64,000 nucleotides of DNA from an uncultured bacterium (GCA_963726455.1 CAVSCK010000004.1:1408001-1472000), one strand, 5' to 3'. Numbered from the stretch's first letter, positions 34,535-46,598 are shown. Notes: generated from the sequence alone by a model not told the origin. Translations and numbers: made by a program.

Positions 34535-37500
34535 TTAGAACTCGACCGTAACCCCGACGCGGATATTGCGACCCGAGCCAAGATTAAGTGGACTATTGGC
34601 AGCATCGCTTCCCGCGAAAACGTAGTTTGAGCCGCCCGCGCCGCTGCTCGTATTGTAGCGGCCCGTAGTGCCGAAGATGTTTTCGATATTCTTCTTATTG
34701 AAGAGATTATTTATCCACAACTCAGCCGTGTAGTCGAGGCCGAGGAATGGGAATCTCTTGTACATCCTGATATCGACATTCGAAGTTGACGGGTATCTCA
34801 TCGAGTTCGTCTGCGGTGTCTCACCCGTCAAGAGTCTCAGCCCGGGGAAGCTCTTGTCCGGAGTGAACGGGAATCCCGAACCGAATTGCCAGATAACGTT
34901 AGTACCCCAATTATCCGGCAGCTTGAGGCCGAACAATTTCGGATGATCGTTCCGCGGCACGCGCAGGTCCAGGTTAAGGGTCAACTGATGGCGAATATCC
35001 CAGGTCAACGGGAATTCCTGAATCGGAATTGACCTGGAATAATATTCGTCGAAGTAGTTCGAGCTCTCGCTCGAACTCTTGCCGTACGCAAACGCGTATT
35101 GATAGCTGGCATATCCGGAAACATAGTTGCCGTATTTCTTATCCAACTGGAATTCCAGACCTCTGGCGCGGGCGTAGTCGGAATTCTGGTAAATGCTGAT
35201 CGCATTGGGTCCACTGCCTTGACGAACAGAGTTGATCTTGCCGAAGATATCCTTGTAGAAGCCAGACATGTCCAGAACGTAGTCCTTCGACAGCGAGTAG
35301 GTCAATCCGAACGCGTAGGAAATCGTGCGGTAGAAATCGAGATTCTCGTTGCCGATAATTCCGAAGGCGTTTGATGCCTGCGTCGCACGCAAATACATGT
35401 AGTTCAGTTCCGGCAACTGATTGAAATGGCCGTAATTGAAGTAGACCTTCGCTTTGTCGGATATCGGATAGCTGAACCCGATACGGGGGCTGAAACGATT
35501 TTGCGAACCCAGGATCGTCTTGGCCGATGACTGATCCGCACTGAGCTTCTTCTTGAGGTCAGCCGACTGAATGAAGAAGTCGAATCGCAAACCGAGGTTA
35601 GCGATCATGCCGCCGTATTCCATCTTGTCCTGCAAGAAGAAAGCTCCCTGGGTTGGACGACGGGTGTAGAAATCACGGAAGACACCGATGTTCGACCAGG
35701 GTCCACCGTCGGGAACGCCGTCATACGGGTAATAAGGATATTCCAAGCTGGCCATGCGCAAGGTGTGCAAGTCAAGCACCAGACCGGACTTGACTTCATG
35801 CTCTTTGCTGAACTGCTTGGTTATCTTGAAGTCGCCCGTGTAACGCATGGACGAACGATCCTCGTACAACGCCCACTGGTCGTAGCCGCGGTCAAGGAAT
35901 CCGTCTCTTGGATCCCATTTGCCATTGCCGTTAAGATCGGTAAACGGCTCGCCTATATCATATACTCCGTTGGGCGGATCATACAGGCCGTTGCCATTCA
36001 GATCCAGGAACGGCATGCCCGGTGACCAAGTATCGCCCGGTCCGTCATACTTGGAATTGTGGTTCAAGTCCATGTTGATCTTCGGATCCGGTGACGCAAT
36101 GAAGATGTCAATGCCCGGATCGTACACGCCGTTCATGTTGACGTCGATGAACGGCTCCCCTAAATTTTTGTCCCCGTCTCTGAAGGGTTCCGGCTGGTCT
36201 ACATTAATAACGGTAGCCCGCTCGGGGTCATACTTTCCATTATTGTTGGTATCGAAAAGCAGATAATCGCCAACATTCCAGTGCCCATCTCCGTTGCGGT
36301 CGACAAATGGCTCCGACTCGTAGAAGTCGACCATGCCGTTGCCGTTCCAATCGGTCAGGATGGTGTCAACCAGCGCTGAGGAATTACGCTGTCCGCGGAA
36401 CTGAGCGTCCACTCCCCGATACTCAGGGTCCAACAATGAATTAACGTTCGGCCAAAGGCTGTTAGCTCCAGAATTGGAGAGAAACACGTCGCCGAAAGTA
36501 TAGAACGGCGTACCCGCGAGATACCACGGATACCAATTCGTATCGCCGGCGACATTAATGAACGACTCCGAAGGATCAAACCTGTTGTTGCCGTTGCGAT
36601 CGTAGTAAACTTCCCACTGATTGTACTGCAAGAATTTGTCGGGAGTCAATCCCTGTCCCGGATTATTGGGATCACCCTGCGCCTGCCTGTAATCGACGTT
36701 AAACCGCGAAAGCGTCAGTTCATAGAACGTTGACTTGTCGATCTGATGGGTCAAGTTAAGTGAGTAGGTAGCTGATTGTTCGTGAACAACCGGCGCCGTT
36801 TGCGGCGTGTAACGGAAATTCCAGGCAAAGTTCGTCTGATCCGTCCAGGAACCACGATAAGTGGCTGTCAGTTTGATCTTTGGTGTTGCCTGCCACCTCA
36901 GCTTCAACTGGCCCTCGTAATTGTTCTGCATCCGGTCTTCAAGATTGAACAATCCCAAAATCGAACGACTGCGGAAGTTACGATTTGTTGTCTGGGTGAA
37001 ATATTGCTTGTAGTTGGCATAACCGTCCGTCTTGTCGGCGGCTCCGGACAACGCGTAATACAGCTTGTCCTGGAACCAATTGATGCCCAGCTTCGGCAGA
37101 AGCTTGTCGGCAAAGAGTGGTTCGCGACCGGACAGGTTGAATTCCAACCGGTCATAGTTGAATGAATTCTTGTTCAAAATCGGAGTGCCCAGATCATCCG
37201 TGTGATATTGCAGCGAGCCAGTTGTGACATCGGAGCCGGCCTTGGTAGCGATCGTCACAATACCGGAGTTGGCGTTACCGTACTCGGCGTCGTAACCGCC
37301 CTTGATGATCTGCATATCTTCGATTACGCTACCGGAGATATTCATGGCCTGATCGGCTGCGCCACGACCACCCAACGGGTCCTTGATCGATACACCGTCG
37401 ACCATGTAGGTGATTTCATTGCTGCGGCCGCCGCGCACGTGAATCTGGCCGGCACGTTCGACCACACCGACCTGAATTTGCAGAAGTTCCTGCACGGTAG

Positions 37501-37948
37501 TGACCGGCATATTCTTGATGGTCTCGGCGGTCAACTGTCTCATGTTCTGAGTTTCACTCAGTTTGAGCAGATCGCGCTCGGCGGTCACCACTACCGCTTT
37601 GTCCAGTTGGATGGTGCTTTCGTCCAGCACGAAGTCGATGATTGTGGTATGGTCGACCGTGACTTCCACCTGCTCGACTTTCATCGGCGTATAACCGACC
37701 GGTCTCGATATCAGCGAGTAACTCTTGGGGGGAACGTTGATGATAATGTACTCACCGTCGGGGCCCGACAGTGCGCCCATCGTGGTGCCCTCGATCTGGA
37801 TTGGCGCGCTGGGAATCGCTTCCTTTGTCTTCTTGTTTGTGATCTTGCCCCTGATCTTGCCGGTGGTACCGGCAAAAACACTAGAGGCGGCAAACAGCGC
37901 CAATACCGCAATGATCAATACCTTTATCATTACCTTGTCCGTCCTCAT
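34535..37948 (-). CDS. TonB-dependent receptor with N-terminal carboxypeptidase-regulatory-like domain and Ca-binding repeat insert
   Basis: GTTGKIRG, IHVRGGRSNE plug, GGYDAEYG, SPRIGFSYPIS, terminal VTVEF; RBS GAAGGAGG before ATG 37948 (alternative start 37996). Confidence 0.92.
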   Translation of the reverse strand: MRTDKVMIKVLIIAVLALFAASSVFAGTTGKIRGKITNKKTKEAIPSAPIQIEGTTMGALSGPDGEYIIINVPPKSYSLISRPVGYTPMKVEQVEVTVDHTTIIDFVLDESTIQLDKAVVVTAERDLLKLSETQNMRQLTAETIKNMPVTTVQELLQIQVGVVERAGQIHVRGGRSNEITYMVDGVSIKDPLGGRGAADQAMNISGSVIEDMQIIKGGYDAEYGNANSGIVTIATKAGSDVTTGSLQYHTDDLGTPILNKNSFNYDRLEFNLSGREPLFADKLLPKLGINWFQDKLYYALSGAADKTDGYANYKQYFTQTTNRNFRSRSILGLFNLEDRMQNNYEGQLKLRWQATPKIKLTATYRGSWTDQTNFAWNFRYTPQTAPVVHEQSATYSLNLTHQIDKSTFYELTLSRFNVDYRQAQGDPNNPGQGLTPDKFLQYNQWEVYYDRNGNNRFDPSESFINVAGDTNWYPWYLAGTPFYTFGDVFLSNSGANSLWPNVNSLLDPEYRGVDAQFRGQRNSSALVDTILTDWNGNGMVDFYESEPFVDRNGDGHWNVGDYLLFDTNNNGKYDPERATVINVDQPEPFRDGDKNLGEPFIDVNMNGVYDPGIDIFIASPDPKINMDLNHNSKYDGPGDTWSPGMPFLDLNGNGLYDPPNGVYDIGEPFTDLNGNGKWDPRDGFLDRGYDQWALYEDRSSMRYTGDFKITKQFSKEHEVKSGLVLDLHTLRMASLEYPYYPYDGVPDGGPWSNIGVFRDFYTRRPTQGAFFLQDKMEYGGMIANLGLRFDFFIQSADLKKKLSADQSSAKTILGSQNRFSPRIGFSYPISDKAKVYFNYGHFNQLPELNYMYLRATQASNAFGIIGNENLDFYRTISYAFGLTYSLSKDYVLDMSGFYKDIFGKINSVRQGSGPNAISIYQNSDYARARGLEFQLDKKYGNYVSGYASYQYAFAYGKSSSESSNYFDEYYSRSIPIQEFPLTWDIRHQLTLNLDLRVPRNDHPKLFGLKLPDNWGTNVIWQFGSGFPFTPDKSFPGLRLLTGETPQTNSMRYPSTSNVDIRMYKRFPFLGLDYTAELWINNLFNKKNIENIFGTTGRYNTSSGAGGSNYVFAGSDAANSPLNLGSGRNIRVGVTVEF

Positions 37949-38156
37949 GGACAAACCTCCTTCTCGAACCGAGATCGAGCGTGTATGTATTCTCATATTT
38001 TTCTCCAGGCCAGTTGACCCTGCAACTTCCTACAGCAACATTCGTATTAGTTATGTTGATCGTTGTGAGGCATTAGCAGTGATCTCTATCCGTACTCCCT
38101 CACGCCGGCTCCAAGTTTGACAAACAAACTCGCATGCCCAAGCATGACAAAAAGTT

Positions 38157-38359: not shown

Positions 38360-39178
38360 CTAGCGGCAACTTTTCTTCGTCGGTGGCGGAATTACTTTGA
38401 TCTCGAACTGCCTCTCTAGCGAAATCAGAAACTTCTCCTCTATCTCTCTGATATCCATCACTCTTCCCAGCTCCTTGTCAACCGAAGTAATCTGGTCAGC
38501 ATCGACTTGATAACCGCTTGGCCATACCTTAGTTAGGTCGTCCAGATTCCAGATGTCTCGGATGCGCAGCGATCCGTGCTGGAGAAAATACCCGCCCGAT
38601 CGGAATTGTGCGCTTCCACAAATCTTCTTACCCCGGACTGCGACCTCAAAGGGACTGAGCATCGCAAAGCATGGGTTCAGACTGTGTCGCGTCTCCGTTG
38701 CCTCCGACGGCACGTCGGTCTGGCTGATTCCCAGTAGTTGAAGAGTCCCCGCCAACGCCGCTCCAATAGCTCGATAGGTCGAGGTCAGCGAACGAAAGGC
38801 CGGATGATGACTCTTGTGTGCCACGATAGCGTAACAGAGGTCTCCTTTGTGCAACAGTGCCCGCCCACCGGTCGGCCGGGTAACTACGTTGTAGCCAAGT
38901 CGGCTAATCTGCTGGAGATCTACCACTTCCGGTCCAACTTGATTCGTCCCCAGACTGATAGTGGGTTTGTCCCAAAGGTATAGTCTGACGATTGGTCTGT
39001 CTTGATCGCCTGCCCGCATCTCGTCGAGCAGCTTTCGGTCAAGCACCATGTTGGCTTCGCCGGAGTCGATACCGACTCCCAGGTACTGCCACGATGTCGG
39101 AGAGACGGCCAAATGCTCTGTCACAACCCCAATGTACGGTTCTAGCCGCCGGAAAGCAATCGAACCTCCAGGAGACAA
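38360..39178 (-). CDS. Lipoate-protein ligase A / octanoyltransferase (LipM-like)
   Basis: NMVLD, RPTGGRALLH, KKICGSAQ, LQHGS; true start probably slightly downstream. Confidence 0.88.
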   Translation of the reverse strand: MSPGGSIAFRRLEPYIGVVTEHLAVSPTSWQYLGVGIDSGEANMVLDRKLLDEMRAGDQDRPIVRLYLWDKPTISLGTNQVGPEVVDLQQISRLGYNVVTRPTGGRALLHKGDLCYAIVAHKSHHPAFRSLTSTYRAIGAALAGTLQLLGISQTDVPSEATETRHSLNPCFAMLSPFEVAVRGKKICGSAQFRSGGYFLQHGSLRIRDIWNLDDLTKVWPSGYQVDADQITSVDKELGRVMDIREIEEKFLISLERQFEIKVIPPPTKKSCR

Positions 39179-39219: not shown

Positions 39220-42141
39220 CTAATCGTGGCTTATGTGGTACTGCTTCATCTTCAGCCGCAACGTCGACTCAGGTATCGCTAACGACTCGGCAGCATATTT
39301 CTTGACCCAGTTGGTCTTCCGGAGTGCACCGAGGATGTAGTCGCGTTCGAGTCTGGCCAGATGATCATAGAGCGAGAATTTGCCCCGTTTGGCAACCGCC
39401 GGTCGCCCGCTGCCATTATCAGCACTTTCACTGATGCGCCGCGAGATTTGGAACCCGGTAATGATCTTGCGCTCGCCTGAGAGCAAAACCATCTTTTTGA
39501 TCTCGTTTTCCAACTCCCGAATGTTACCCGGCCAGTCGTAGTCTGCCAAAAGGTTAAACGCCTCGGGCTCGATTTTCACCTGTGGATCCGTCTTGTCGAT
39601 GAAATGCTTGATCAGAAGCGGGATGTCTTCGCGCCGTTCACGCAACGGAGGCAGTCGAAACGCGAAAGTCGACAACCGGTAGTAAAGGTCCTGCCGGAAT
39701 TGTCCCTGCTCCATACAGGTCTTGAGATCGCGATTCGTGGCCGAAATCACTCGAACATCAACCTTGCGAGGCACCGTATCACCCAACCGAACCACTTCCT
39801 TCTCCTCGATCACTCGCAACAGCTTCACCTGTACCGACAACGGCATGTCGCCGATTTCGTCAAGGAAGAACGTGCCGCCGTCGGCTTCTTCAAACAGCCC
39901 GGTTTTCTCCCCGTCCGCGCCCGTAAATGCGCCGCGCCGGTAGCCGAACAATTCTGATTCCAGAAGCGTTTCCGGTAACGCCGCACAGTTGACCGAGATG
40001 AAGCGCTTATCTTTCCGATTCGAATTGTAGTGAATTGCCTTGGCGAGATAATCTTTCCCGGTACCGGTTTCACCTTCGATCAGGATCGATATCGACGAGT
40101 CCTTGACCTGAGACACTCGTTCGAGGATGTCGAGCGTTCCCGGATTAGCGGTGACCAAATTTGGGAAGGCATGCTGCCGCTGCAGTTGATTCTTGAGACG
40201 CTGATTGTCAAGAGTCAGGCGTTTCTTCTGCTCCTCGGATGATTTGAACGCAATAATATCCGAGAATGCGATCGCGAAATCGAGGTCGGCTTTCGAGAAG
40301 GCCCTGGCCTCCGCGCCGATGCGATCCACATATAGAATGCCGATCGTCTCCTCGGACAATCTGATCGGGATCGCGACGAAACTCCGAATCTGTCCGGCGG
40401 TCGCAAACAAGTATTCAAACATGCGGCTGCGTTCACCCGTGAGGGAACTGACCAGCAATGGCCGATCCAAAGGCAATGTTCCAGCTTTGCCGTTGGCCAA
40501 CGTGCGCGAAATCTTGCCGATGACAGTCGGATCGAATGCCAGGTAAGCCAGCGGTTCATAAGTCTTCTGCTGCGGATCGAGAGACAACACAAAAGCGCGG
40601 TCGCCAGCGATCTTCCGTCGCAGTACTTCCAGCGACTCCTTCAGAGTACCGCTCTTGAGATGTCCGTATTCGGATGCCGACAAAAACGAGCTGAACACAA
40701 AGAACTGATTGTCGTGGGAAAGTCCCTTGTCAACCATCTGGTCTTCGATACTGAGGCGCAGAATTCGGCACTCTTCCATTGAACGGTCATCATTGAGCGC
40801 GGTCGCCAGTTCTTCGCATTTTTCGACGTACTGCAGCGCTTCGTCATAATTTGTCATTTCAACATTGAGCGCGCTTAGCTGGTAAAAGGTCTGTATGAGC
40901 AGATGCCTCGATCCGAGCCGCTGCGCCAGTTGTATCGCATTGTTCAGATAGCGCGTGGCCAAATCACGATAGGCCGCAACCTTCACCAGCGACTTGCCGG
41001 CGAGATAACACGCATCGGCCTGCTCTCCGATTTCACCGGCTGTTTCCAGACAGTCAAGAGCTTCGGCGAACATGGTCACAGCTTCAGCGCTATTTCCCTT
41101 GATCGCCGCCAGCGATCCCAGTATCGACTTTGCCGCAGCCGACTCGACCGTCTCGCCCAACGCATCCGCAACCTCCAGCGCACGCTCCGCATGTTCGGAG
41201 GCCAGCGCATAGTTGCCGCAGTCGTATTCCAGTGCCGCCAGCCGTCTGCGAGTCTGGCTGATGATGGCACTCTGGGGAGCGATGCGATAACCGATCTCAA
41301 GAGCGTAGCCGTAATGCTGCCGCGCCATCTTGTGATCGCCCAGCGCCCGGAGCAAATCCCCCATATACTCATGGTAGATGGACCGATCGCGAACGAGATC
41401 CTGAGCTTTGATCAACACCAGTGCCTGTTCATACAGGTCCCTGGCCGCGACATATTCTTCCTTGAGATAGTGGACGTACCCGAGTGACAGAAGATTTTTC
41501 GCTTCCGACGAAGCGTTATCGGCGCGCCGACAATAAGCCACGCACTCTTCCAGCATTCTTTGCGCGGTATCCCACTCGCCAAGCAAGGTCTTGACGCGTG
41601 CTTGATTACCGCGCGCCCGGAACAAATGATATTCCGGCGCCGTATCGTCTTTGGCCAGATATTCTATCGACTGGGTTAGAAACTTGTCGGCCTGACGATA
41701 ATCGCCGCGAACGAAATAGACCTGCGCGAGTTTGTTGTAACAGCCAACCAACTCGGCCTCACAATTGATGCGGCGGAATGAACTGATGGCGTCCCGAATG
41801 TAATCCTCTCCAGCGCCTAACTCACCCAGCGCGACATGAATCTTGCCGACTAATGACTGAATCCGGCCGATCAACAGATTCTCAGCCGTGGTGCCGACGA
41901 TGGCATACGCCTTATTCGCGAGATCGAGGACGTCTTGGTGGGGTTTGGAATTGAACTCAACGACGGCCAGGAGATAATAGTATTCTCCTGCTGCTAGCGA
42001 ACTCGAGTCTTGCTCAACTGTCTGAGCGAGCTTCTCTAGTTCTGCTTTGGCTTCGACAAACTTGTTTTCTGCTACGAGATGTTCAATAAAACTAAGTTTG
42101 TCCGCCGTTTCCGAAAGTGCACTACCGATTGATGTACTCAT
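39220..42141 (-). CDS. Sigma54-dependent enhancer-binding protein, TPR-GAF-AAA+-HTH
   Basis: ~480 aa helical TPR-like region, GAF-like GILYVD segment, GETGTGK, GAFTGA, FLDEIG, FRQDLYYRL, WPGNIREL, Fis-type HTH. Confidence 0.92.
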   Translation of the reverse strand: MSTSIGSALSETADKLSFIEHLVAENKFVEAKAELEKLAQTVEQDSSSLAAGEYYYLLAVVEFNSKPHQDVLDLANKAYAIVGTTAENLLIGRIQSLVGKIHVALGELGAGEDYIRDAISSFRRINCEAELVGCYNKLAQVYFVRGDYRQADKFLTQSIEYLAKDDTAPEYHLFRARGNQARVKTLLGEWDTAQRMLEECVAYCRRADNASSEAKNLLSLGYVHYLKEEYVAARDLYEQALVLIKAQDLVRDRSIYHEYMGDLLRALGDHKMARQHYGYALEIGYRIAPQSAIISQTRRRLAALEYDCGNYALASEHAERALEVADALGETVESAAAKSILGSLAAIKGNSAEAVTMFAEALDCLETAGEIGEQADACYLAGKSLVKVAAYRDLATRYLNNAIQLAQRLGSRHLLIQTFYQLSALNVEMTNYDEALQYVEKCEELATALNDDRSMEECRILRLSIEDQMVDKGLSHDNQFFVFSSFLSASEYGHLKSGTLKESLEVLRRKIAGDRAFVLSLDPQQKTYEPLAYLAFDPTVIGKISRTLANGKAGTLPLDRPLLVSSLTGERSRMFEYLFATAGQIRSFVAIPIRLSEETIGILYVDRIGAEARAFSKADLDFAIAFSDIIAFKSSEEQKKRLTLDNQRLKNQLQRQHAFPNLVTANPGTLDILERVSQVKDSSISILIEGETGTGKDYLAKAIHYNSNRKDKRFISVNCAALPETLLESELFGYRRGAFTGADGEKTGLFEEADGGTFFLDEIGDMPLSVQVKLLRVIEEKEVVRLGDTVPRKVDVRVISATNRDLKTCMEQGQFRQDLYYRLSTFAFRLPPLRERREDIPLLIKHFIDKTDPQVKIEPEAFNLLADYDWPGNIRELENEIKKMVLLSGERKIITGFQISRRISESADNGSGRPAVAKRGKFSLYDHLARLERDYILGALRKTNWVKKYAAESLAIPESTLRLKMKQYHISHD

Positions 42142-42153
42142 CAGGAATTACTG

Positions 42154-42492
42154 TTACTTTGGTTTCCTGTTAACAACCGTCTTTGTCGGTTGTTGTGAGT
42201 TGCTATTGTCTACAATTCTTTCCCTGGGTTCTTCTTTTGCCCTGTTCGTGAAAAGTTCACGAACTTCTCTGAGCCACTGGCGCGTCCATGTGAAGAACTT
42301 CTGAATAATCGGTTCATCAACATAGGGCCGGGGCGGTTCCACACTGTTGCCGTTGTTCACTTCTCCCGTGACATGAGACGAATCTAACGATCGGTCATCC
42401 CACGGATGATCCACGGCTTTGACTGTGGTGGGTAAAAGAATGGCTAGGGAGACTGTGCAGACAACCAGCGTTAGCACTTTGAGCAGGCTCAT
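42154..42492 (-). CDS. Small secreted protein, candidate signalling propeptide
   Basis: RBS GGAGG; Sec signal ending VKA; mature N-terminus VDHPWDD; stop 12 nt before the activator ATG. Confidence 0.75.
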   Translation of the reverse strand: MSLLKVLTLVVCTVSLAILLPTTVKAVDHPWDDRSLDSSHVTGEVNNGNSVEPPRPYVDEPIIQKFFTWTRQWLREVRELFTNRAKEEPRERIVDNSNSQQPTKTVVNRKPK

Positions 42493-42542
42493 ATCCCACT
42501 GCCTCCAATAAACTAAGAATGAACGTTCTAGTTCAACAGCGA

Positions 42543-42607
42543 TGCAAATTTCCGTGCTGTATCTATTTATCCTGCATTATTATGCAAATTCCTGCAACCC
42601 TTGTCAA
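42543..42607 (-). promoter_or_regulatory. Sigma70 promoter overlapped by phased TGCA boxes
   Basis: TTGACA(42602-07)-17-CATAAT(42579-84); TGCA at 42543, 42573, 42583, 42593. Confidence 0.7.
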
Positions 42608-42723
42608 GTACTTTTTGCAGATGGCAGATAATAACCATTAACCTACCAGCGCAAGTCACTAGTAATCACGCACTTGCGCAGACGGCGCATTTCTTGCGCC
42701 AGAGTGTTTCGGCGCAGAATTTG

Positions 42724-43509
42724 TTATAGAATTTGTCCGTCGCGCAGCTTCGTGAACAATTTGTCCGCGATTTCATCCGGTGTGGCGCCGGATATCATTT
42801 CGCCCTTCGGCCTAGCCGGAGGAGTTGCCACATGGGTCACCTGACTTCCGGAACTCAATTCGGCCGAACCCGGAACAAGATTCAAAGCGGCAGCATTGTG
42901 GACTGTAATTTCTTTTTTCTTGGCTGTCATTTTGCCTTTGAGCGAAGGCAGCCGCGGCTCGTTGATTTCCTTTACGACCGAAAGCACGGCCGGGGTCGAC
43001 ACGGTCACTTTATCGAATCCATCATCGGTCATTCGCTCGACCGTCACCTTGCCGTCACCGATTGATTCGATCTTGCGCACGAACATCACGGCCGGCAGTC
43101 CGAGAAACCCGCCGATGGCCGGGGGAATCGTTGAAGCATCTGAATCGACCGCTTGCTTGCCCAGCAAAATCAAATCGAAATCGCCGCATTTGCGAATTCC
43201 GGCCGCCAGTAGCCGCGCCGTAGTAATTTCGTCCGCGCCGGCGAACGCGCCATCCATCAGATGCACGGCTTCATCGACGCCCAGGGCCAGCGCCTCGCGC
43301 AGCGCATATTCGGCTTCTTTGCCTCCGAGTGACAGCGCCGTGATACTGCCGCCGTTCTTTTCTTTCCATCGCAACGCTTCTTCGATACCATAACTATCGA
43401 ACGGATTGATCATCCCCGGTCCCTGCGGCAAACTGATTTCGCCTTTCTGCGCGTCCACCGACACCAGCGGAATTTCCGGAACCTGTTTGACACATACGAT
43501 CAGCTTCAT
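42724..43509 (-). CDS. etfB: Electron transfer flavoprotein beta subunit
   Basis: IVCVKQVP, INPFD, GKQAVD, INEPRLPSLKG. Confidence 0.95.
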   Translation of the reverse strand: MKLIVCVKQVPEIPLVSVDAQKGEISLPQGPGMINPFDSYGIEEALRWKEKNGGSITALSLGGKEAEYALREALALGVDEAVHLMDGAFAGADEITTARLLAAGIRKCGDFDLILLGKQAVDSDASTIPPAIGGFLGLPAVMFVRKIESIGDGKVTVERMTDDGFDKVTVSTPAVLSVVKEINEPRLPSLKGKMTAKKKEITVHNAAALNLVPGSAELSSGSQVTHVATPPARPKGEMISGATPDEIADKLFTKLRDGQIL

Positions 43510-43526
43510 GGTATCTCCTCTGCGAT

Positions 43527-44285
43527 TCAGGATTCTGAGTTGAGAGTTGTCAGCGCTTCAGCGGCTGCTTTCTGTTCGGCGTTCTTCTTGGAGTCACCGA
43601 CTCCCGTTCCCATTCTCTTCCCCCCGACAAACACATCTACGGTAAAGATCTTCTTGTGCTCCGGTCCTTCTTCGCCGGTTACCGTATAATGAGGCATCCC
43701 GGCGCCCCGCGCCTGCAAGCGCTCGAGCAATTCACCTTTGTAATTTCTAAGCGATAGTGCCTTGCTGGTCTGGCCGAAATCAAACGATATGGCCTGTTTG
43801 ATCACTTCACGCGTCGCCGCCATGCCGCCGTCGAGATACACCGCGCCGATCACCGCCTCCAGACAATCGGCGACAATCGACTGGCGGCGCCTGCCGCCTG
43901 CACGCTCTTCGTCGCTGGATAGAAAGACATAATCGCCGAGTCCCATCTTATTCCCGACATGTGCCAGCACTTTCTTGTTTACGAGAAGTGACTTGCTCTT
44001 GGTGAGATCACCTTCCGTCATGTCCGGATGCTTTTGATAGAGTTCTTCGGCGACCACCAGACCCAGCACCGAATCGCCGAGAAATTCGAGGCGTTCGTAA
44101 GACTGAGTGATGCTGGATTCATTGGCGCGCAGATGCGAACGATGCGTCAAAGCTAATTCGAGGTAAACAGTATTGCGGAAATTGTAGCCCAGCTTGCGTT
44201 CTAGTTCGTCCCGTCCCTTAAGAGAAACGCCCCCGTCACTCCTGATGGGTTTCTTGCCAAAGATTTTCGACAAGATGCGAAGCAT
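43527..44285 (-). CDS. rnc: Ribonuclease III
   Basis: ALTHRS, ERLEFLGDSVL, EAVIGAVYLD, C-terminal dsRBD. Confidence 0.96.
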   Translation of the reverse strand: MLRILSKIFGKKPIRSDGGVSLKGRDELERKLGYNFRNTVYLELALTHRSHLRANESSITQSYERLEFLGDSVLGLVVAEELYQKHPDMTEGDLTKSKSLLVNKKVLAHVGNKMGLGDYVFLSSDEERAGGRRRQSIVADCLEAVIGAVYLDGGMAATREVIKQAISFDFGQTSKALSLRNYKGELLERLQARGAGMPHYTVTGEEGPEHKKIFTVDVFVGGKRMGTGVGDSKKNAEQKAAAEALTTLNSES

Positions 44286-44287
44286 GG

Positions 44288-45538
44288 TTATCCGGCAGAA
44301 TTGGCATGTTTTCCCAGGGCAAGCGTGACGTTATGTCCGCCAAAACCAAAGGAATTGCTCAATGCGTATTTGATGTCGACGGCTCTGCCGGTTCCCTTCG
44401 TGTAATCCAGATCGCACTGCGGATCCTGGCTGTCGATGTTTATCGTCGGATGCACATAACCGTCCCGCAATGATAATGCGCAGATCACGGCTTCCGCCGC
44501 CCCGGCCGCGCCCAGCATATGGCCGATCATCGACTTGCTCGAATTGATCGCCAGTGATTTGGCTTGTTCGCCGAACACGGTCTTGATCGCCAACGTCTCG
44601 GCGATATCGCCCAGCGGCGTCGAAGTGCCGTGGGTGTTGACATAGCCGATCTTGTCAATCGACAAACCCGCATCCTTCATCGCCGCTCGCATGGCGCGCG
44701 CAGCACCATCGCCATCCGGCGACGGCGCCGTGATGTGATAGGCATCCGCCGACATGCCGAACCCGACAAGATCAGCATATACTTTGGCGCCACGACGTTT
44801 CGCATATTCCTCTTCTTCGAGAACTATAATCGCCGCGCCTTCTCCCATGACAAAGCCGTCGCGATCAATATCAAACGGCCTCGATGCCCTTTGCGGCTCG
44901 TCATTGCGCGTCGAAAGCGCCCGCGAGGAACAGAAACCCGCGAACGACATCTCGGTAATCGATGCTTCCGCGCCTCCGGTGATAACCACCTCGGCTTCGC
45001 CGTGCTGAATTATTCGCATCGCGTCGCCAATGGCATGCGCGGAAGAAGCGCAGGCGCTGACCGTCCCATAATTGGGTCCTTTGAACCCGAAGCGCAGGGA
45101 AATCAGCCCCGATAGCATATCAATGATCATCATCGGGATAAAGAAGGGCGATACCCGCGATGGTCCCTTCTCGACAAACGCGGTATGCTGCTCCTCAAAG
45201 GAGAGAATACCGCCGATTCCCGAACCGGTTACCACCGCAACTCGATCTTTGTCGACCTGATCGAGATTTAATCCCGAATCGTCGATTGCCATCTGCGCCG
45301 CGCCAATTGCAAACTGCTGAACCAGATCGGTGCGCCGCAGTTCTTTCTTGTCAAGATACTTAGCCGCGTCGAAACCTTTGACCTGCGCCGCGATTCGGCA
45401 GTCAAATCGGGATGTGTCGAATCGTTCTACCTGGGAAACGCCTGAAAGTCCGGCCCTGAGATTCTGCCAGAGCTCCTCGACATTGTTCCCGAGTGGCGTC
45501 AGCACACCAATTCCGGTGATCACCGCTTTCTTCATCAA
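44288..45538 (-). CDS. fabF: Beta-ketoacyl-ACP synthase II
   Basis: SACAS, HGTSTPLGD, SNSFGFGGHN. Confidence 0.96.
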   Translation of the reverse strand: MMKKAVITGIGVLTPLGNNVEELWQNLRAGLSGVSQVERFDTSRFDCRIAAQVKGFDAAKYLDKKELRRTDLVQQFAIGAAQMAIDDSGLNLDQVDKDRVAVVTGSGIGGILSFEEQHTAFVEKGPSRVSPFFIPMMIIDMLSGLISLRFGFKGPNYGTVSACASSAHAIGDAMRIIQHGEAEVVITGGAEASITEMSFAGFCSSRALSTRNDEPQRASRPFDIDRDGFVMGEGAAIIVLEEEEYAKRRGAKVYADLVGFGMSADAYHITAPSPDGDGAARAMRAAMKDAGLSIDKIGYVNTHGTSTPLGDIAETLAIKTVFGEQAKSLAINSSKSMIGHMLGAAGAAEAVICALSLRDGYVHPTINIDSQDPQCDLDYTKGTGRAVDIKYALSNSFGFGGHNVTLALGKHANSAG

Positions 45539-45580
45539 ACCAACTTCCTGTCTGTTATGGCGGAAAGTTTAACGACCCCT

Positions 45581-45817
45581 TTACTGCTTGGCGTGCGCCT
45601 TGATATAATTGATGGCGTCTCCGACAGTTCCAATTTTCTCCGCCTCTTCGTCGGGGATTTCGAGACTGAATGCCTCTTCCAGCGCCATCACCAGCTCCAC
45701 GGTGTCCAGCGAGTCAGCGCCGAGATCGTCCACGAATTTTGCTGCCGGTACTACGGCATCCTTGTCAACGTTGAGTTGCTCAACGATAATATCCTTGACC
45801 TTTGCTTCGACGTCCAT
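45581..45817 (-). CDS. acpP: Acyl carrier protein
   Basis: [14 protein letters not shown]; start at ATG 8 nt after GGAGG. Confidence 0.96.
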
Positions 45818-45860
45818 TTCCATCTCCTCCAAATTGTATCAAACTAATATGACTTAATTT

Positions 45861-46598
45861 TCACATTAACAAGCCACCACAGACGGGCAGTACCTGCCCC
45901 GTGATGTATGCCGATTCATCCGCCGCCAGGAACAGCACCGCGTTGGCCACATCCTCCGGCAGTCCGGCACGCTTGAGCGGTATGTTTGTAAGAAACGCCT
46001 GCTTGGCTGCATCGGGAAGATGCTCGGTCATTTCCGTCTGGATGTATCCCGGCGCAACCGCGTTGACGGTCACGTTCCTCCCCGCCAGTTCCTTGGCCGC
46101 GCTCTTGGTCAGGCCAACCAGTCCGGCCTTTGACGCCGAGTAATTCGCTTGTCCAAAATTGCCCATCAGGCCGACTACCGACGAAATGTTGACAATCCTT
46201 CCAGTGCGCGCCTTGATCATGACTTTGGCTGCCGCCTGAGTCATCAGGAACGCTCCCTTGAGGTTGATATTCAATACGCGATCCCAGTCTGCCTCGGCCA
46301 TCTTAATCAACAACGTATCTTTGGTGATTCCGGCGTTGTTCACCAATATGTCCAGCGACCCGAAGCTGGCGACCGTCTTCTCGATGGCGGCCTGGGCTTC
46401 GGTCGAGGAAGTCACATCACAGTGAACGAATGCCACCCCACCACGACCGGTCAACTCACTTACTGTCTGCGCCCCGGCATCGTCAAGAACATCCGCGATC
46501 ATTACCTTGCAGCCATGATCCATCAACTTTTCGACAATCGCTCTGCCTATGCCGCGCGCTCCACCCGTGACCAAAGCCGCTTTACCCGAAAGATTCAA
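45861..46598 (-). CDS. fabG: 3-oxoacyl-ACP reductase
   Basis: TGGARGIG, NNAGIT, YSASK. Confidence 0.95.
   Translation of the reverse strand: MNLSGKAALVTGGARGIGRAIVEKLMDHGCKVMIADVLDDAGAQTVSELTGRGGVAFVHCDVTSSTEAQAAIEKTVASFGSLDILVNNAGITKDTLLIKMAEADWDRVLNINLKGAFLMTQAAAKVMIKARTGRIVNISSVVGLMGNFGQANYSASKAGLVGLTKSAAKELAGRNVTVNAVAPGYIQTEMTEHLPDAAKQAFLTNIPLKRAGLPEDVANAVLFLAADESAYITGQVLPVCGGLLM

Follow-up and report, generated by a model that had tools for sequence, protein, structure and literature searches.

The closest described systems to the one reported here are those of the RRNPP type (Rap-Phr, NprR-NprX, PlcR-PapR, PrgX, AimR-AimP and Rgg-SHP). Their signature comprises a propeptide of 10-100 aa by default (21-50 aa in validated cases) with a general secretory (Sec, SPI) signal, a receptor of 250-500 aa with tetratricopeptide repeats (TPRs) and adjacency of the two genes (PMC10075063). 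According to the same portion, cytoplasmic TPR receptors encoded beside a propeptide are regarded as a speciality of Firmicutes and their phages (PMC10075063). The TPRs of kinesin light chains bind 'W-acidic' motifs (Trp flanked by Asp/Glu, e.g. TNLEWDDSAI of SKIP) in a concave groove, with an electrostatic component to the binding (PMC6214655). Here we describe a gene pair that recalls both, found in a 64,000-nt stretch of DNA from an uncultured bacterium of the Zixibacteria (GCA_963726455.1 CAVSCK010000004.1:1408001-1472000). This whole stretch, hereafter the window, corresponds to C4:1408001-1472000 in a genome of 3.64 Mb, assembled in five contigs and 100% complete by markers. On the minus strand, to which all window coordinates below refer unless otherwise stated, a 112-aa open reading frame (ORF) for a small, predicted exported protein (42154-42492) is followed, after a gap of 12 nt (42142-42153), by a 973-aa ORF (39220-42141) for a sigma-54-dependent activator, or bacterial enhancer-binding protein (bEBP). 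An earlier note on this DNA, made from the sequence alone, had pointed out this pair and proposed that the second protein is a TPR receptor for a motif of the first. Both ORFs and the gap were as it had described, and its core idea has held in the conservation and covariation checks reported here.

Genome comparison identifies the pair as a real and strongly conserved two-gene signalling module across Zixibacteria, far beyond what chance would give. Within the window's own family (f1) the small protein is kept in 20/20 genomes, and its ORF lies directly 5' of the regulator orthologue in all 20 loci. The small protein was present in 22 of 61 related genomes, namely the window's own, all 20 others of f1 and 1 of the 40 outside f1, and a contig scan with the f1-specific pattern A[VN]DHPWDD gave 22 stretches, 14 of them relatives, all from f1. 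The TPR part of the regulator has relatives in 265/285 genomes of the phylum, comprising orthologues of ~975-990 aa and shorter paralogues of ~735-800 aa that lack the GAF domain. The expectation that homologous activators would have small signal-peptide ORFs upstream was borne out. From at least 11 other families, 49 loci were picked solely by similarity of the regulator's TPR part, and in 48 of them the regulator is preceded on the same strand by an ORF of 87-125 aa that has an ATG, a ribosome-binding-site word, a hydrophobic signal and the motif; the sole exception is a short paralogue (L103). In the largest family (f7), 107/108 genomes have one regulator orthologue, and among 90 loci examined the ORF was found by script in 81 and by inspection in 7 more, the other 2 being cut by contig ends, which makes 88/88 assessable loci. 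The module is kept in nearly every Zixibacteria genome sampled. In most loci the two genes are separated by 1-26 nt; since no Shine-Dalgarno sequence precedes the regulator ATG and in f6 the stop and start codons overlap as ATGA, translation of the two is probably coupled.

The small protein matched no Pfam or NCBIfam family and had no usable match in ESM Atlas. Its ATG is preceded, at a distance of 9 nt, by a GGAGG ribosome-binding site (42502-42506) that is shared by all 20 f1 loci. By its sequence features it starts with a Sec-type signal peptide (aa 1-26; 42415-42492): the N-terminus reads MSLLKVLTLVVCTVSLAILLPTTVKA|VDHPWDD, with MSLLK, a hydrophobic run and predicted cleavage at VKA|VD, and A-x-A precedes the motif in f1 small proteins. 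Directly after the predicted cleavage site stands the tryptophan-acidic motif VDHPWDD (aa 27-33; 42394-42414), our proposed ligand by virtue of its conservation and its covariation with the TPR domain; a motif-bearing stretch of the small protein reads VDHPWDDRSLDSS. AlphaFold2 predicted a helix at aa 3-19, disorder over aa 20-61 including the motif, an amphipathic, Trp-containing helix at aa 62-84 (42241-42309; predicted local distance difference test, pLDDT, 74-79) and a disordered basic tail. The earlier note's picture of a compact VDHPWDD followed by a low-complexity tail needs one correction, namely that the tail is not featureless: it contains this helix, whose W69 is nearly invariant in f1. 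In other families, the small proteins have Trp-rich hydrophobic segments at a comparable position. A second membrane helix was considered and rejected for f1, the segment at aa 62-84 being amphipathic with ~7 charged residues; the C-terminal Trp-rich segment is uncharged in some f7 small proteins, and the rejection covers f1 only.

Residues A26, D28, H29, P30, W31, D32, D33 and D37 are invariant in 20/20 f1 small proteins, and the conservation of HPW that the earlier note had named as a check was found here. Across families, only a Sec-type signal and, near the start of the mature protein, a motif [D/E]-x-P-W-[D/E] are common to the small proteins. In all 145 of them the n-region has a net charge of at least +1 and is followed by a hydrophobic run of 13-26 residues (median 22) ending mostly in G, A or S; their median length is 112 aa (range 79-128), and in 66/145 the motif starts 1 residue past the hydrophobic run. 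An alignment of small proteins (A3), with a mean identity of 18%, has H, P and W invariant in its 54 rows. These rows were 54 of the 68 small proteins then at hand, with Asp, Gln, HTW and HPWG/HPWV variants and near-duplicates left out, so that the invariance is partly due to selection, the rows having been chosen to carry HPW. In the 48 other-family small ORFs, the site before Pro-Trp is H in 44, D in 3 and Q in 1, with T in place of P in two; the motif +1 position is Asp in 131 of the 145 small proteins. Rare variants of the motif were seen within f7, where Trp is replaced by Phe (EGPFDVD) in L157, L159, L160 and L195, with Met or Thr at TPR position 182 and His at 186, and Pro is replaced by Ala (EHAWDAD) in L171, L181 and L192, with Thr at 182 and Leu at 186.

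Other identities for the small protein were also considered. A copper- or nickel-binding site of the amino-terminal (ATCUN) type at a mature X-D-H was rejected, as the motif lies 8-25 residues past the predicted cleavage site in f15, f6 and f9 and its His is replaceable. A lipoprotein was rejected by inspection: Cys occurs in many of the hydrophobic regions, with a variable preceding residue (A, V, T, G or L), and it is not conserved between families.

The evidence that carries the pairing of motif and receptor is their covariation. We compared motif positions with TPR columns 1-290 in 147 parsed pairs of small protein and regulator, 145 of them unique. The set is without the 7 f7 ORFs found by eye (3 with His and Leu186, 2 with Asn and Tyr186, 2 with Asn and Phe186) and without the 2 loci cut by contig ends, and it contains one mis-parsed motif, L216, which was read as DDPPFDSN, the likely true one being ADHTWTDD nearer the N-terminus. 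Indeed, the receptor-peptide covariation that the earlier note had looked to was present and chemically sensible. The residue before Pro-Trp, hereafter the His site, goes with TPR 186 as His+Leu in 79/92, Asp+Arg in 20/21, Gly+His in 12/13, Leu+Cys in 2/2 and Tyr+Leu in 3/3 pairs, and with TPR 143 as His+Phe in 87/92, with Tyr or His at 143 accompanying Asp, Gly and Asn. The motif +2 position pairs with TPR 137 and 140 (acidic with Lys/Arg137 in 41/55, Ala/Ser with Glu137 in 47/48), and Asp at +1 accompanies Asn216 in 120/131. Of the 290 TPR columns, 186 has the most mutual information with the His site (1.14 of 1.73 bits). The combination Asp+Arg186 was seen in three families (f5, f11 and f7), and the otherwise conserved R182 is also replaced in two of these three Asp-variant families as well as in two other deviant motifs. 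To judge from the residues involved, the pairings are chemically complementary, Asp with Arg and acidic residues with Lys/Arg.

Because linked genes share a phylogeny, which inflates raw associations, we ran tree-aware tests on a tree built leaving out the seven trait columns. On this tree the His site changed 17 times and column 186 changed 18 times; sign tests on independent pairs never gave the wrong direction for 186, 143, 137 and 216. A ranking of columns was more informative: when edge-disjoint pairs were compared, 13 differing and 66 alike at the His site, the largest excess of change fell on columns 143 (7/13 vs 4/66), 186 (7/13 vs 6/66) and 222 (7/13 vs 7/66), with Fisher p values of 1.4e-4, 6e-4 and 1.2e-3, uncorrected for 290 columns. 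The 17 His-site changes with matching changes in the receptor resemble a diversification of signalling specificities.

These tests also leave room for a reading in which the two proteins make no direct contact, the small protein being an envelope or periplasmic effector, or a sensor that signals via a membrane protein, and the covariation stemming from shared ancestry. Besides the inflation of raw associations, such a reading can point to the different compartments in which the two proteins are predicted to end up. It is also favoured by the tree-aware sign tests, which are underpowered and fall short of significance (for Asp vs Arg186, 5 pairs with 3 the same, 0 opposite and 2 unchanged; p 0.25). 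Further results weigh against direct binding: the Fisher p values are only marginal (~0.04-0.3) after Bonferroni correction over 290 columns; an association of Asp at +3 with Arg171 was unsupported on the tree (1.0 vs 1.1); and there are exceptions, L202 having Asp with Phe186 and two Asn variants having Arg186. However, shared ancestry sits poorly with the rank of column 186 as first of 290 by mutual information, with 143, 186 and 222 as the top three by excess change, and with the fact that these columns are low-entropy positions beside invariant groove residues. It fits no better with chemically complementary pairings in which Asp-Arg arose in three families, or with the accompanying replacement of R182. 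We therefore regard the absence of contact as improbable.

The structure predicted for the receptor shows where the co-varying positions lie. The TPR sensor domain (aa 1-495; 40657-42141) consists of ~10-12 helical repeats according to Pfam, AlphaFold2 and a profile search, the sensor part alone amounting to ~480 aa, and Pfam matched TPR_12 (3.1e-29) and TPR_MalT (6.7e-18) over about aa 130-450. AlphaFold2 gave it a mean pLDDT of 90.8, with 25 helices in a TPR superhelix. A profile search of the PDB with this domain returned Pins/LGN (4e-18), kinesin light chains (1e-9 to 1e-6), Rap (1.4e-8 and 4.4e-6) and MalT (1.6e-5), and the closest folds in Foldseek were peptide-bound TPRs, among them LGN-Inscuteable/NuMA, Tonsoku (TSK)-H3 tail and APPBP2-degron, with a phage Rap-pheromone complex at rank 42. 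On these sequence and model comparisons, the TPR domain is of the peptide-binding kind and, judged by the sequence matches, its likeness to Rap is generic to TPR domains. ESM Atlas placed aa 1-640 of the regulator only in generic TPR or GAF clusters.

Positions 136-143, 179-186 and 216-222 fall on the successive first (A) helices of three neighbouring repeats, beside the invariant N136, N179 and R182, and the covariation places the motif contacts on A-helices 128-145, 170-187 and 210-226 of the predicted TPR fold. Two groove helix segments stand out by covariation: N136-F143 (41713-41736), of which K137, Q140 and F143 co-vary with the motif, and N179-L186 (41584-41607), with N179 invariant and R182 and L186 co-varying. 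In alignments to Pins/LGN, the Asn of the repeated 'LGN' motif stands opposite Q140, R182 and Y222; in LGN/Pins these asparagines contact the bound peptide and hold its backbone. A complex prediction of TPR aa 1-495 with aa 27-112 of the small protein, made from separate alignments and without controls, gave interface scores (ipSAE) of 0.03 and 0.02, which speak neither for nor against contact. Given the covariation, its place on the predicted groove helices, the W-acidic type of the motif and the disordered stretch that holds it, we consider it very likely that the motif binds directly in the TPR groove.

The remainder of the regulator has the architecture that the earlier note had read from it, GAF, AAA+ with GAFTGA and helix-turn-helix (HTH) domains after the TPRs, as confirmed by Pfam and by translation. 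A GAF domain (aa 499-631; 40249-40647; 8.4e-08) is followed by the sigma-54 interaction AAA+ domain with its lid (aa 664-909; 39415-40152), in which Sigma54_activat (PF00158; 1.9e-69) covers aa 664-827 with 233 bits against a cut-off of 20.2 and AAA_lid_14 (5.2e-20) covers aa 834-909, the GAFTGA being intact in the translation. A Fis-type HTH_8 DNA-binding domain (aa 928-968; 39238-39360; 2.4e-08) ends the protein. By its central and C-terminal domains, the regulator is thus a regular member of the sigma-54 activator family. Among NCBIfam equivalogs, including the named bEBP models, none matched it at cut-off. The window's genome encodes rpoN (Sigma54_DBD at C5:497391-497867, 2.8e-58) and contains ~20 sigma-54 activator AAA+ domains, of which two follow TPR domains.

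Upstream of the pair, two elements recur. One is a sigma-70-type promoter by consensus match (42579-42607), with a -35 TTGACA at 42602-42607, a 17-nt spacer and a -10 CATAAT at 42579-42584; the other is a palindrome CGCA-N5-TGCG (here GGCGCAAGAAATGCGCC; 42686-42698, assigned to neither strand), a putative operator by its conservation, with the regulator's HTH as its presumed binder. In the 300 nt that precede the small ORF, the palindrome was seen at 19/20 f1, 25/43 other-family and 23/23 additional f7 loci; a control stretch within the regulator gene had it in 0/49. The corresponding figures for TTGAC[AT] are 20/20, 42/43 and 23/23 against 4/49, and this element is aligned across all f1 loci. 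In f7 the layout is palindrome, 6-22 nt, TTGAC[AT], 16-19 nt and TAnnnT, often with a second, looser palindrome just past the -10; the f1 palindrome lies ~80 nt further upstream of the -35 element. As palindrome and TTGACA promoter travel with the module despite differing neighbours, autoregulation is the simplest reading, and the pattern suggests that the regulator controls its own operon via the adjoining palindrome (in f7, via two bracketing copies). A further feature was seen between the -10 and the ribosome-binding site, where a leader of ~85 nt (42507-42580) has a block that is kept within genus g2 and holds a short inverted repeat, AGCACAGCCAAAGATGTGCT. The block containing AGCACAGCCAAAGATGTGCT is not conserved in the window's own genus; it may be an RNA structure.

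The targets envisaged by the earlier note have not been found. It had the regulator activating sigma-54 promoters, plausibly those of nearby secreted proteases; a sigma-54 promoter was seen neither in the window nor in the operon's upstream region (for the latter, 1/66 vs 1/66 in the control, with scattered weak matches in f1), and no link to secreted proteases emerged. The note's suggestion of the adjacent TonB operon as an import route likewise gained no support from these tests. The neighbours of the module are kept only within f1. Genome-wide, 16 strong intergenic sigma-54 promoter candidates were counted; all lie outside the window, and the palindrome was not found within 400 nt of any of them. 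For the strict palindrome, 80 copies were counted in the genome against ~72 expected by composition; 10 copies are intergenic, with no strong sigma-54 site beside them. Intergenic calls in this regulon search rest on a crude ORF map of the genome. Separately, the search revealed two identical strong sigma-54 promoter candidates (TGGCACGCCGGTTGCA) at C5:203489 and C5:205197, 1.7 kb apart, both preceded by one and the same sequence of 140 nt with many TTCGCGAA-like repeats. From its sequence, the TGGCACGCCGGTTGCA pair looks like a tandem duplication of a sigma-54-controlled unit.

How an exported ligand could meet a cytoplasmic receptor is the question on which readings of the module divide. All 145 small proteins have an export signal and the regulator has none; neither a signal peptide nor a membrane segment was seen in it. 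We tentatively favour a course in which the two genes would constitute an autonomous, autoregulated ligand-receptor module. The small protein would be made with its Sec signal peptide and exported, and its motif-bearing N-terminal peptide would be freed by proteolysis outside the cytoplasm. The peptide would then re-enter the cytoplasm, possibly via OPT transporters, and so report cell density or envelope state. Its W-acidic motif, in the disordered stretch just past the cleavage site, would be the cognate ligand of the concave TPR groove, contacting A-helices around N136-F143, N179-L186 and L218-Y222, and occupancy of the groove would switch the GAF-AAA+ part of the sigma-54 activator. The regulator would probably also bind the CGCA-N5-TGCG palindrome at its own promoter and thereby set its own synthesis. 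Such a course, from export through proteolytic release, return and groove binding to the switch, would be an RRNPP-like working, independently invented and wired to sigma-54; as a whole we hold it to be plausible without calling it probable.

For the return of the peptide, the genomes offer one kind of transporter. OPT-family oligopeptide transporters are encoded in the window's genome (C4:228065-229976) and in 270/285 genomes of the phylum, and CstA is present as well. A number of points nevertheless count against the course just outlined, beyond the missing sigma-54 targets. The presence of OPT transporters is non-specific, as they also occur in families without the module. Neither an OppA-type binding protein (SBP_bac_5), on which RRNPP systems rely for import, nor PTR2 was found in the window's genome, and across the phylum OppA-type proteins were found in only 69/285 genomes (1/20 in f1, 8/108 in f7) and not in the other 216/285. 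Being a diderm's, the peptide would need to cross an outer membrane. The precursor of ~110 aa with its motif at the N-terminus differs from validated RRNPP propeptides of 21-50 aa, and the conserved helix and basic tail of the small protein have no role in the model. The motif core hardly varies within the phylum, or between the two modules of one genome, unlike fast-diverging pheromones, and binding, export, processing and uptake have all been read from sequence. The distribution of OppA-type proteins has a pattern of its own: they are not found preferentially in genomes with the module, and f8 and f16, mostly without a good TPR-activator match (4/10 and 4/14, all weak), yet have one in 8/10 and 14/14 genomes. 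This pattern runs opposite to the prediction of an Opp-dependent peptide system.

On a rival reading, capture takes place before export, the TPR groove binding the motif on the cytoplasmic precursor and Sec export removing the ligand, so that the regulator would read export capacity or envelope stress. An importer is then unnecessary, in agreement with the missing OppA, and a near-constant motif core poses no problem. The covariation evidence for direct binding fits equally well, and the motif adjoins the signal peptide, as the 66 of 145 proteins with 1 residue between hydrophobic run and motif illustrate. Ligand and receptor would also meet at birth, since they are made from one mRNA with tiny gaps and coupled translation. 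However, the precursor bears no sequence sign of lingering in the cytoplasm, nothing obvious would drive a purely intracellular single-copy pair through 17 compensated His-site changes, and this reading, too, leaves the conserved C-terminal helix without explanation. We know of no Sec-coupled regulator of this type. We prefer re-import, with the same tentativeness as above, because the recurrent, compensated switching of specificity recalls a diversification of communication channels and because a means of peptide uptake clearly exists; capture before export seems to us rather unlikely, if worth serious attention.

The coupling of the two genes could also be taken to mean that the small ORF works chiefly in cis, monitoring secretion from upstream so that its translation and export set how much regulator is translated. 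SecM monitors secretion for secA in this manner, as MifM does for yidC2, both as upstream ORFs. In keeping with such a leader, the small ORF is always upstream and on the same strand, has a signal peptide, and is joined by tiny gaps or overlaps to a regulator without a Shine-Dalgarno sequence of its own. Translational coupling, however, fits every model alike. The conserved element lies at aa 27-33, at which point the signal peptide is still inside the ribosome, and is not a C-terminal arrest motif; the C-terminal regions are unconserved between families, and control in cis leaves the covariation with the TPR groove unexplained. We give a leader of this kind very little credence.

If, on the re-import reading, the peptide also passed between cells, the module would be a means of genuine cell-to-cell communication in Zixibacteria. 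A returning W-acidic peptide would then drive a sigma-54 regulon, and the lineage-specific pairs His-Leu, Asp-Arg, Gly-His and Leu-Cys would be private channels between co-occurring relatives. We consider this extension doubtful. Were it true, W-acidic recognition by TPR_12 repeats would be an ancient bacterial signalling code.

The window's genome has a second module, at C5:320046-322551, in which a small ORF with RDHPWQDD is separated by a 1-nt gap from a 734-aa TPR-AAA+-HTH activator without a GAF domain (C5:320347-322551). In this regulator, groove residue 182 is Thr, not Arg, and upstream of the pair TTGACA-N17-TATCTT is present and the CGCA-N5-TGCG palindrome absent; the differences at residue 182 and upstream may be a means of keeping the two modules apart in one cell. 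Among regulator orthologues, in-frame stop codons break the match in L167 (G128:C3; 2 TAG), G141:C225 (1 TAA) and G142:C107 (1 TAA), which may be broken genes, assembly errors or cases of recoding.

In the window itself, the module is preceded on its 5' side by a housekeeping row of fabG, acpP, fabF, rnc (RNase III) and etfB (42724-46598, all on the minus strand), and the position of rnc and etfB upstream of it is kept in 14/14 f1 loci. Downstream of the regulator lies a gene for an LplA/LipB-type lipoate ligase (38360-39178), in the same order in at least 8 f1 loci. The order rnc-etfB-module-lplA is confined to f1, other families having different neighbours of the module. Further downstream, at 34535-37996, a 1153-aa TonB-dependent receptor with an N-terminal CarboxypepD_reg domain has an architecture typical of the FCB group.

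To conclude, we compare the module with the known systems that it most resembles, starting with those in which export sets the state of a regulator. In FlgM/sigma-28 and ExsE-ExsC-ExsD-ExsA, the partner of a regulator is disposed of by secretion. With these and with SecM and MifM, the likenesses are a partner with an export signal, whose export can set the regulator's state, and a gene that is upstream and coupled. Those systems use a flagellar or type III route or arrest translation in cis, whereas here the general Sec pathway and a TPR receptor acting in trans are implied. An exported ligand and a cytoplasmic receptor in a diderm would be new on either answer, be it re-import without Opp or a Sec-coupled switch.

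The likeness to kinesin light chains is one of recognition. Both have TPR_12-type repeats and a Trp-acidic ligand in a disordered segment (predicted in our case), and the region of similarity (query aa 128-244) is the very region that co-varies with the motif. Kinesin light chains, however, serve motor-cargo recognition in eukaryotes and not the control of transcription, and the motif described here has an obligatory Pro before the Trp, usually preceded by His, its proposed binding resting on covariation. LGN/Pins, which binds Inscuteable, NuMA, Afadin and Frmpd peptides, gave the strongest match by sequence (4e-18) and ranks among the strongest by fold, and Q140, R182 and Y222 occupy its repeated asparagine positions. 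It is a eukaryotic polarity protein, and the counterpart of its asparagine ladder is here partly Gln, Arg and Tyr, varying with the ligand. The covariation amounts to a falsifiable map of the interface, the His site with 143 and 186 and the +2 position with 137 and 140.

With other bEBPs (NifA and FhlA with GAF, NorR, XylR, DmpR, and PspF with PspA), the regulator shares the AAA+ domain with GAFTGA, the lid and HTH_8, in a genome with rpoN, and an N-terminal sensory region that presumably gates the ATPase. It differs in its sensor, a TPR domain of ~480 aa with a proposed ligand that is a genetically encoded, exported peptide. To our knowledge, such a sensor is not among the known bEBP architectures, and sigma-54 activators would gain in it an unrecognised class of input. 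Among the matches listed in a literature search there was no account of a bEBP with a TPR sensor and an adjacent exported peptide, or of sigma-54 in Zixibacteria, the search not extending to the supplementary tables of PMC10075063, which may name candidates from outside Firmicutes.

The comparison with RRNPP systems is the closest. A TPR receptor is encoded beside a small gene with a Sec signal; ligand and receptor residues co-diversify between lineages; the operon is probably autoregulated here as well; and Rap is among the sequence and fold matches of the TPR domain. The differences are equally plain. The host is a diderm of a candidate phylum. At 973 aa, with a GAF-AAA+ sigma-54 output and a C-terminal HTH, the receptor differs from those of RRNPP systems, which span 250-500 aa and have an HTH at the N-terminus or else a phosphatase. 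The motif stands at the mature N-terminus of a precursor of ~110 aa (79-128), where RRNPP propeptides have theirs towards the C-terminus. In the operon the gene for the ligand precedes that for the receptor, with translation of the two probably coupled; OppA-type importers are missing from most genomes; and by sequence the TPRs stand nearer to those of LGN and kinesin light chains than to those of Rap. Set beside the published signature, the module shows the Sec signal (by sequence features), the TPRs and the adjacency, and departs from it in propeptide length and receptor length; the Opp permease of RRNPP systems was not found in the window's genome. Since it fails the length criteria, lacks Opp, has a sigma-54 output and has TPRs that resemble LGN or kinesin light chains at least as much as Rap, we do not count it as a member of the RRNPP family. 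The label 'RRNPP-like' of the earlier note is apt for the logic and unsuited as regards lengths and the import route, and the homology seen to the receptors is of the generic TPR kind. These differences suggest that detectors tuned to Firmicutes receptors of 250-500 aa miss such systems. The module would then represent RRNPP-type logic in a never-cultured diderm phylum, built from other parts, namely a sigma-54 enhancer-binding receptor and a W-acidic linear motif.

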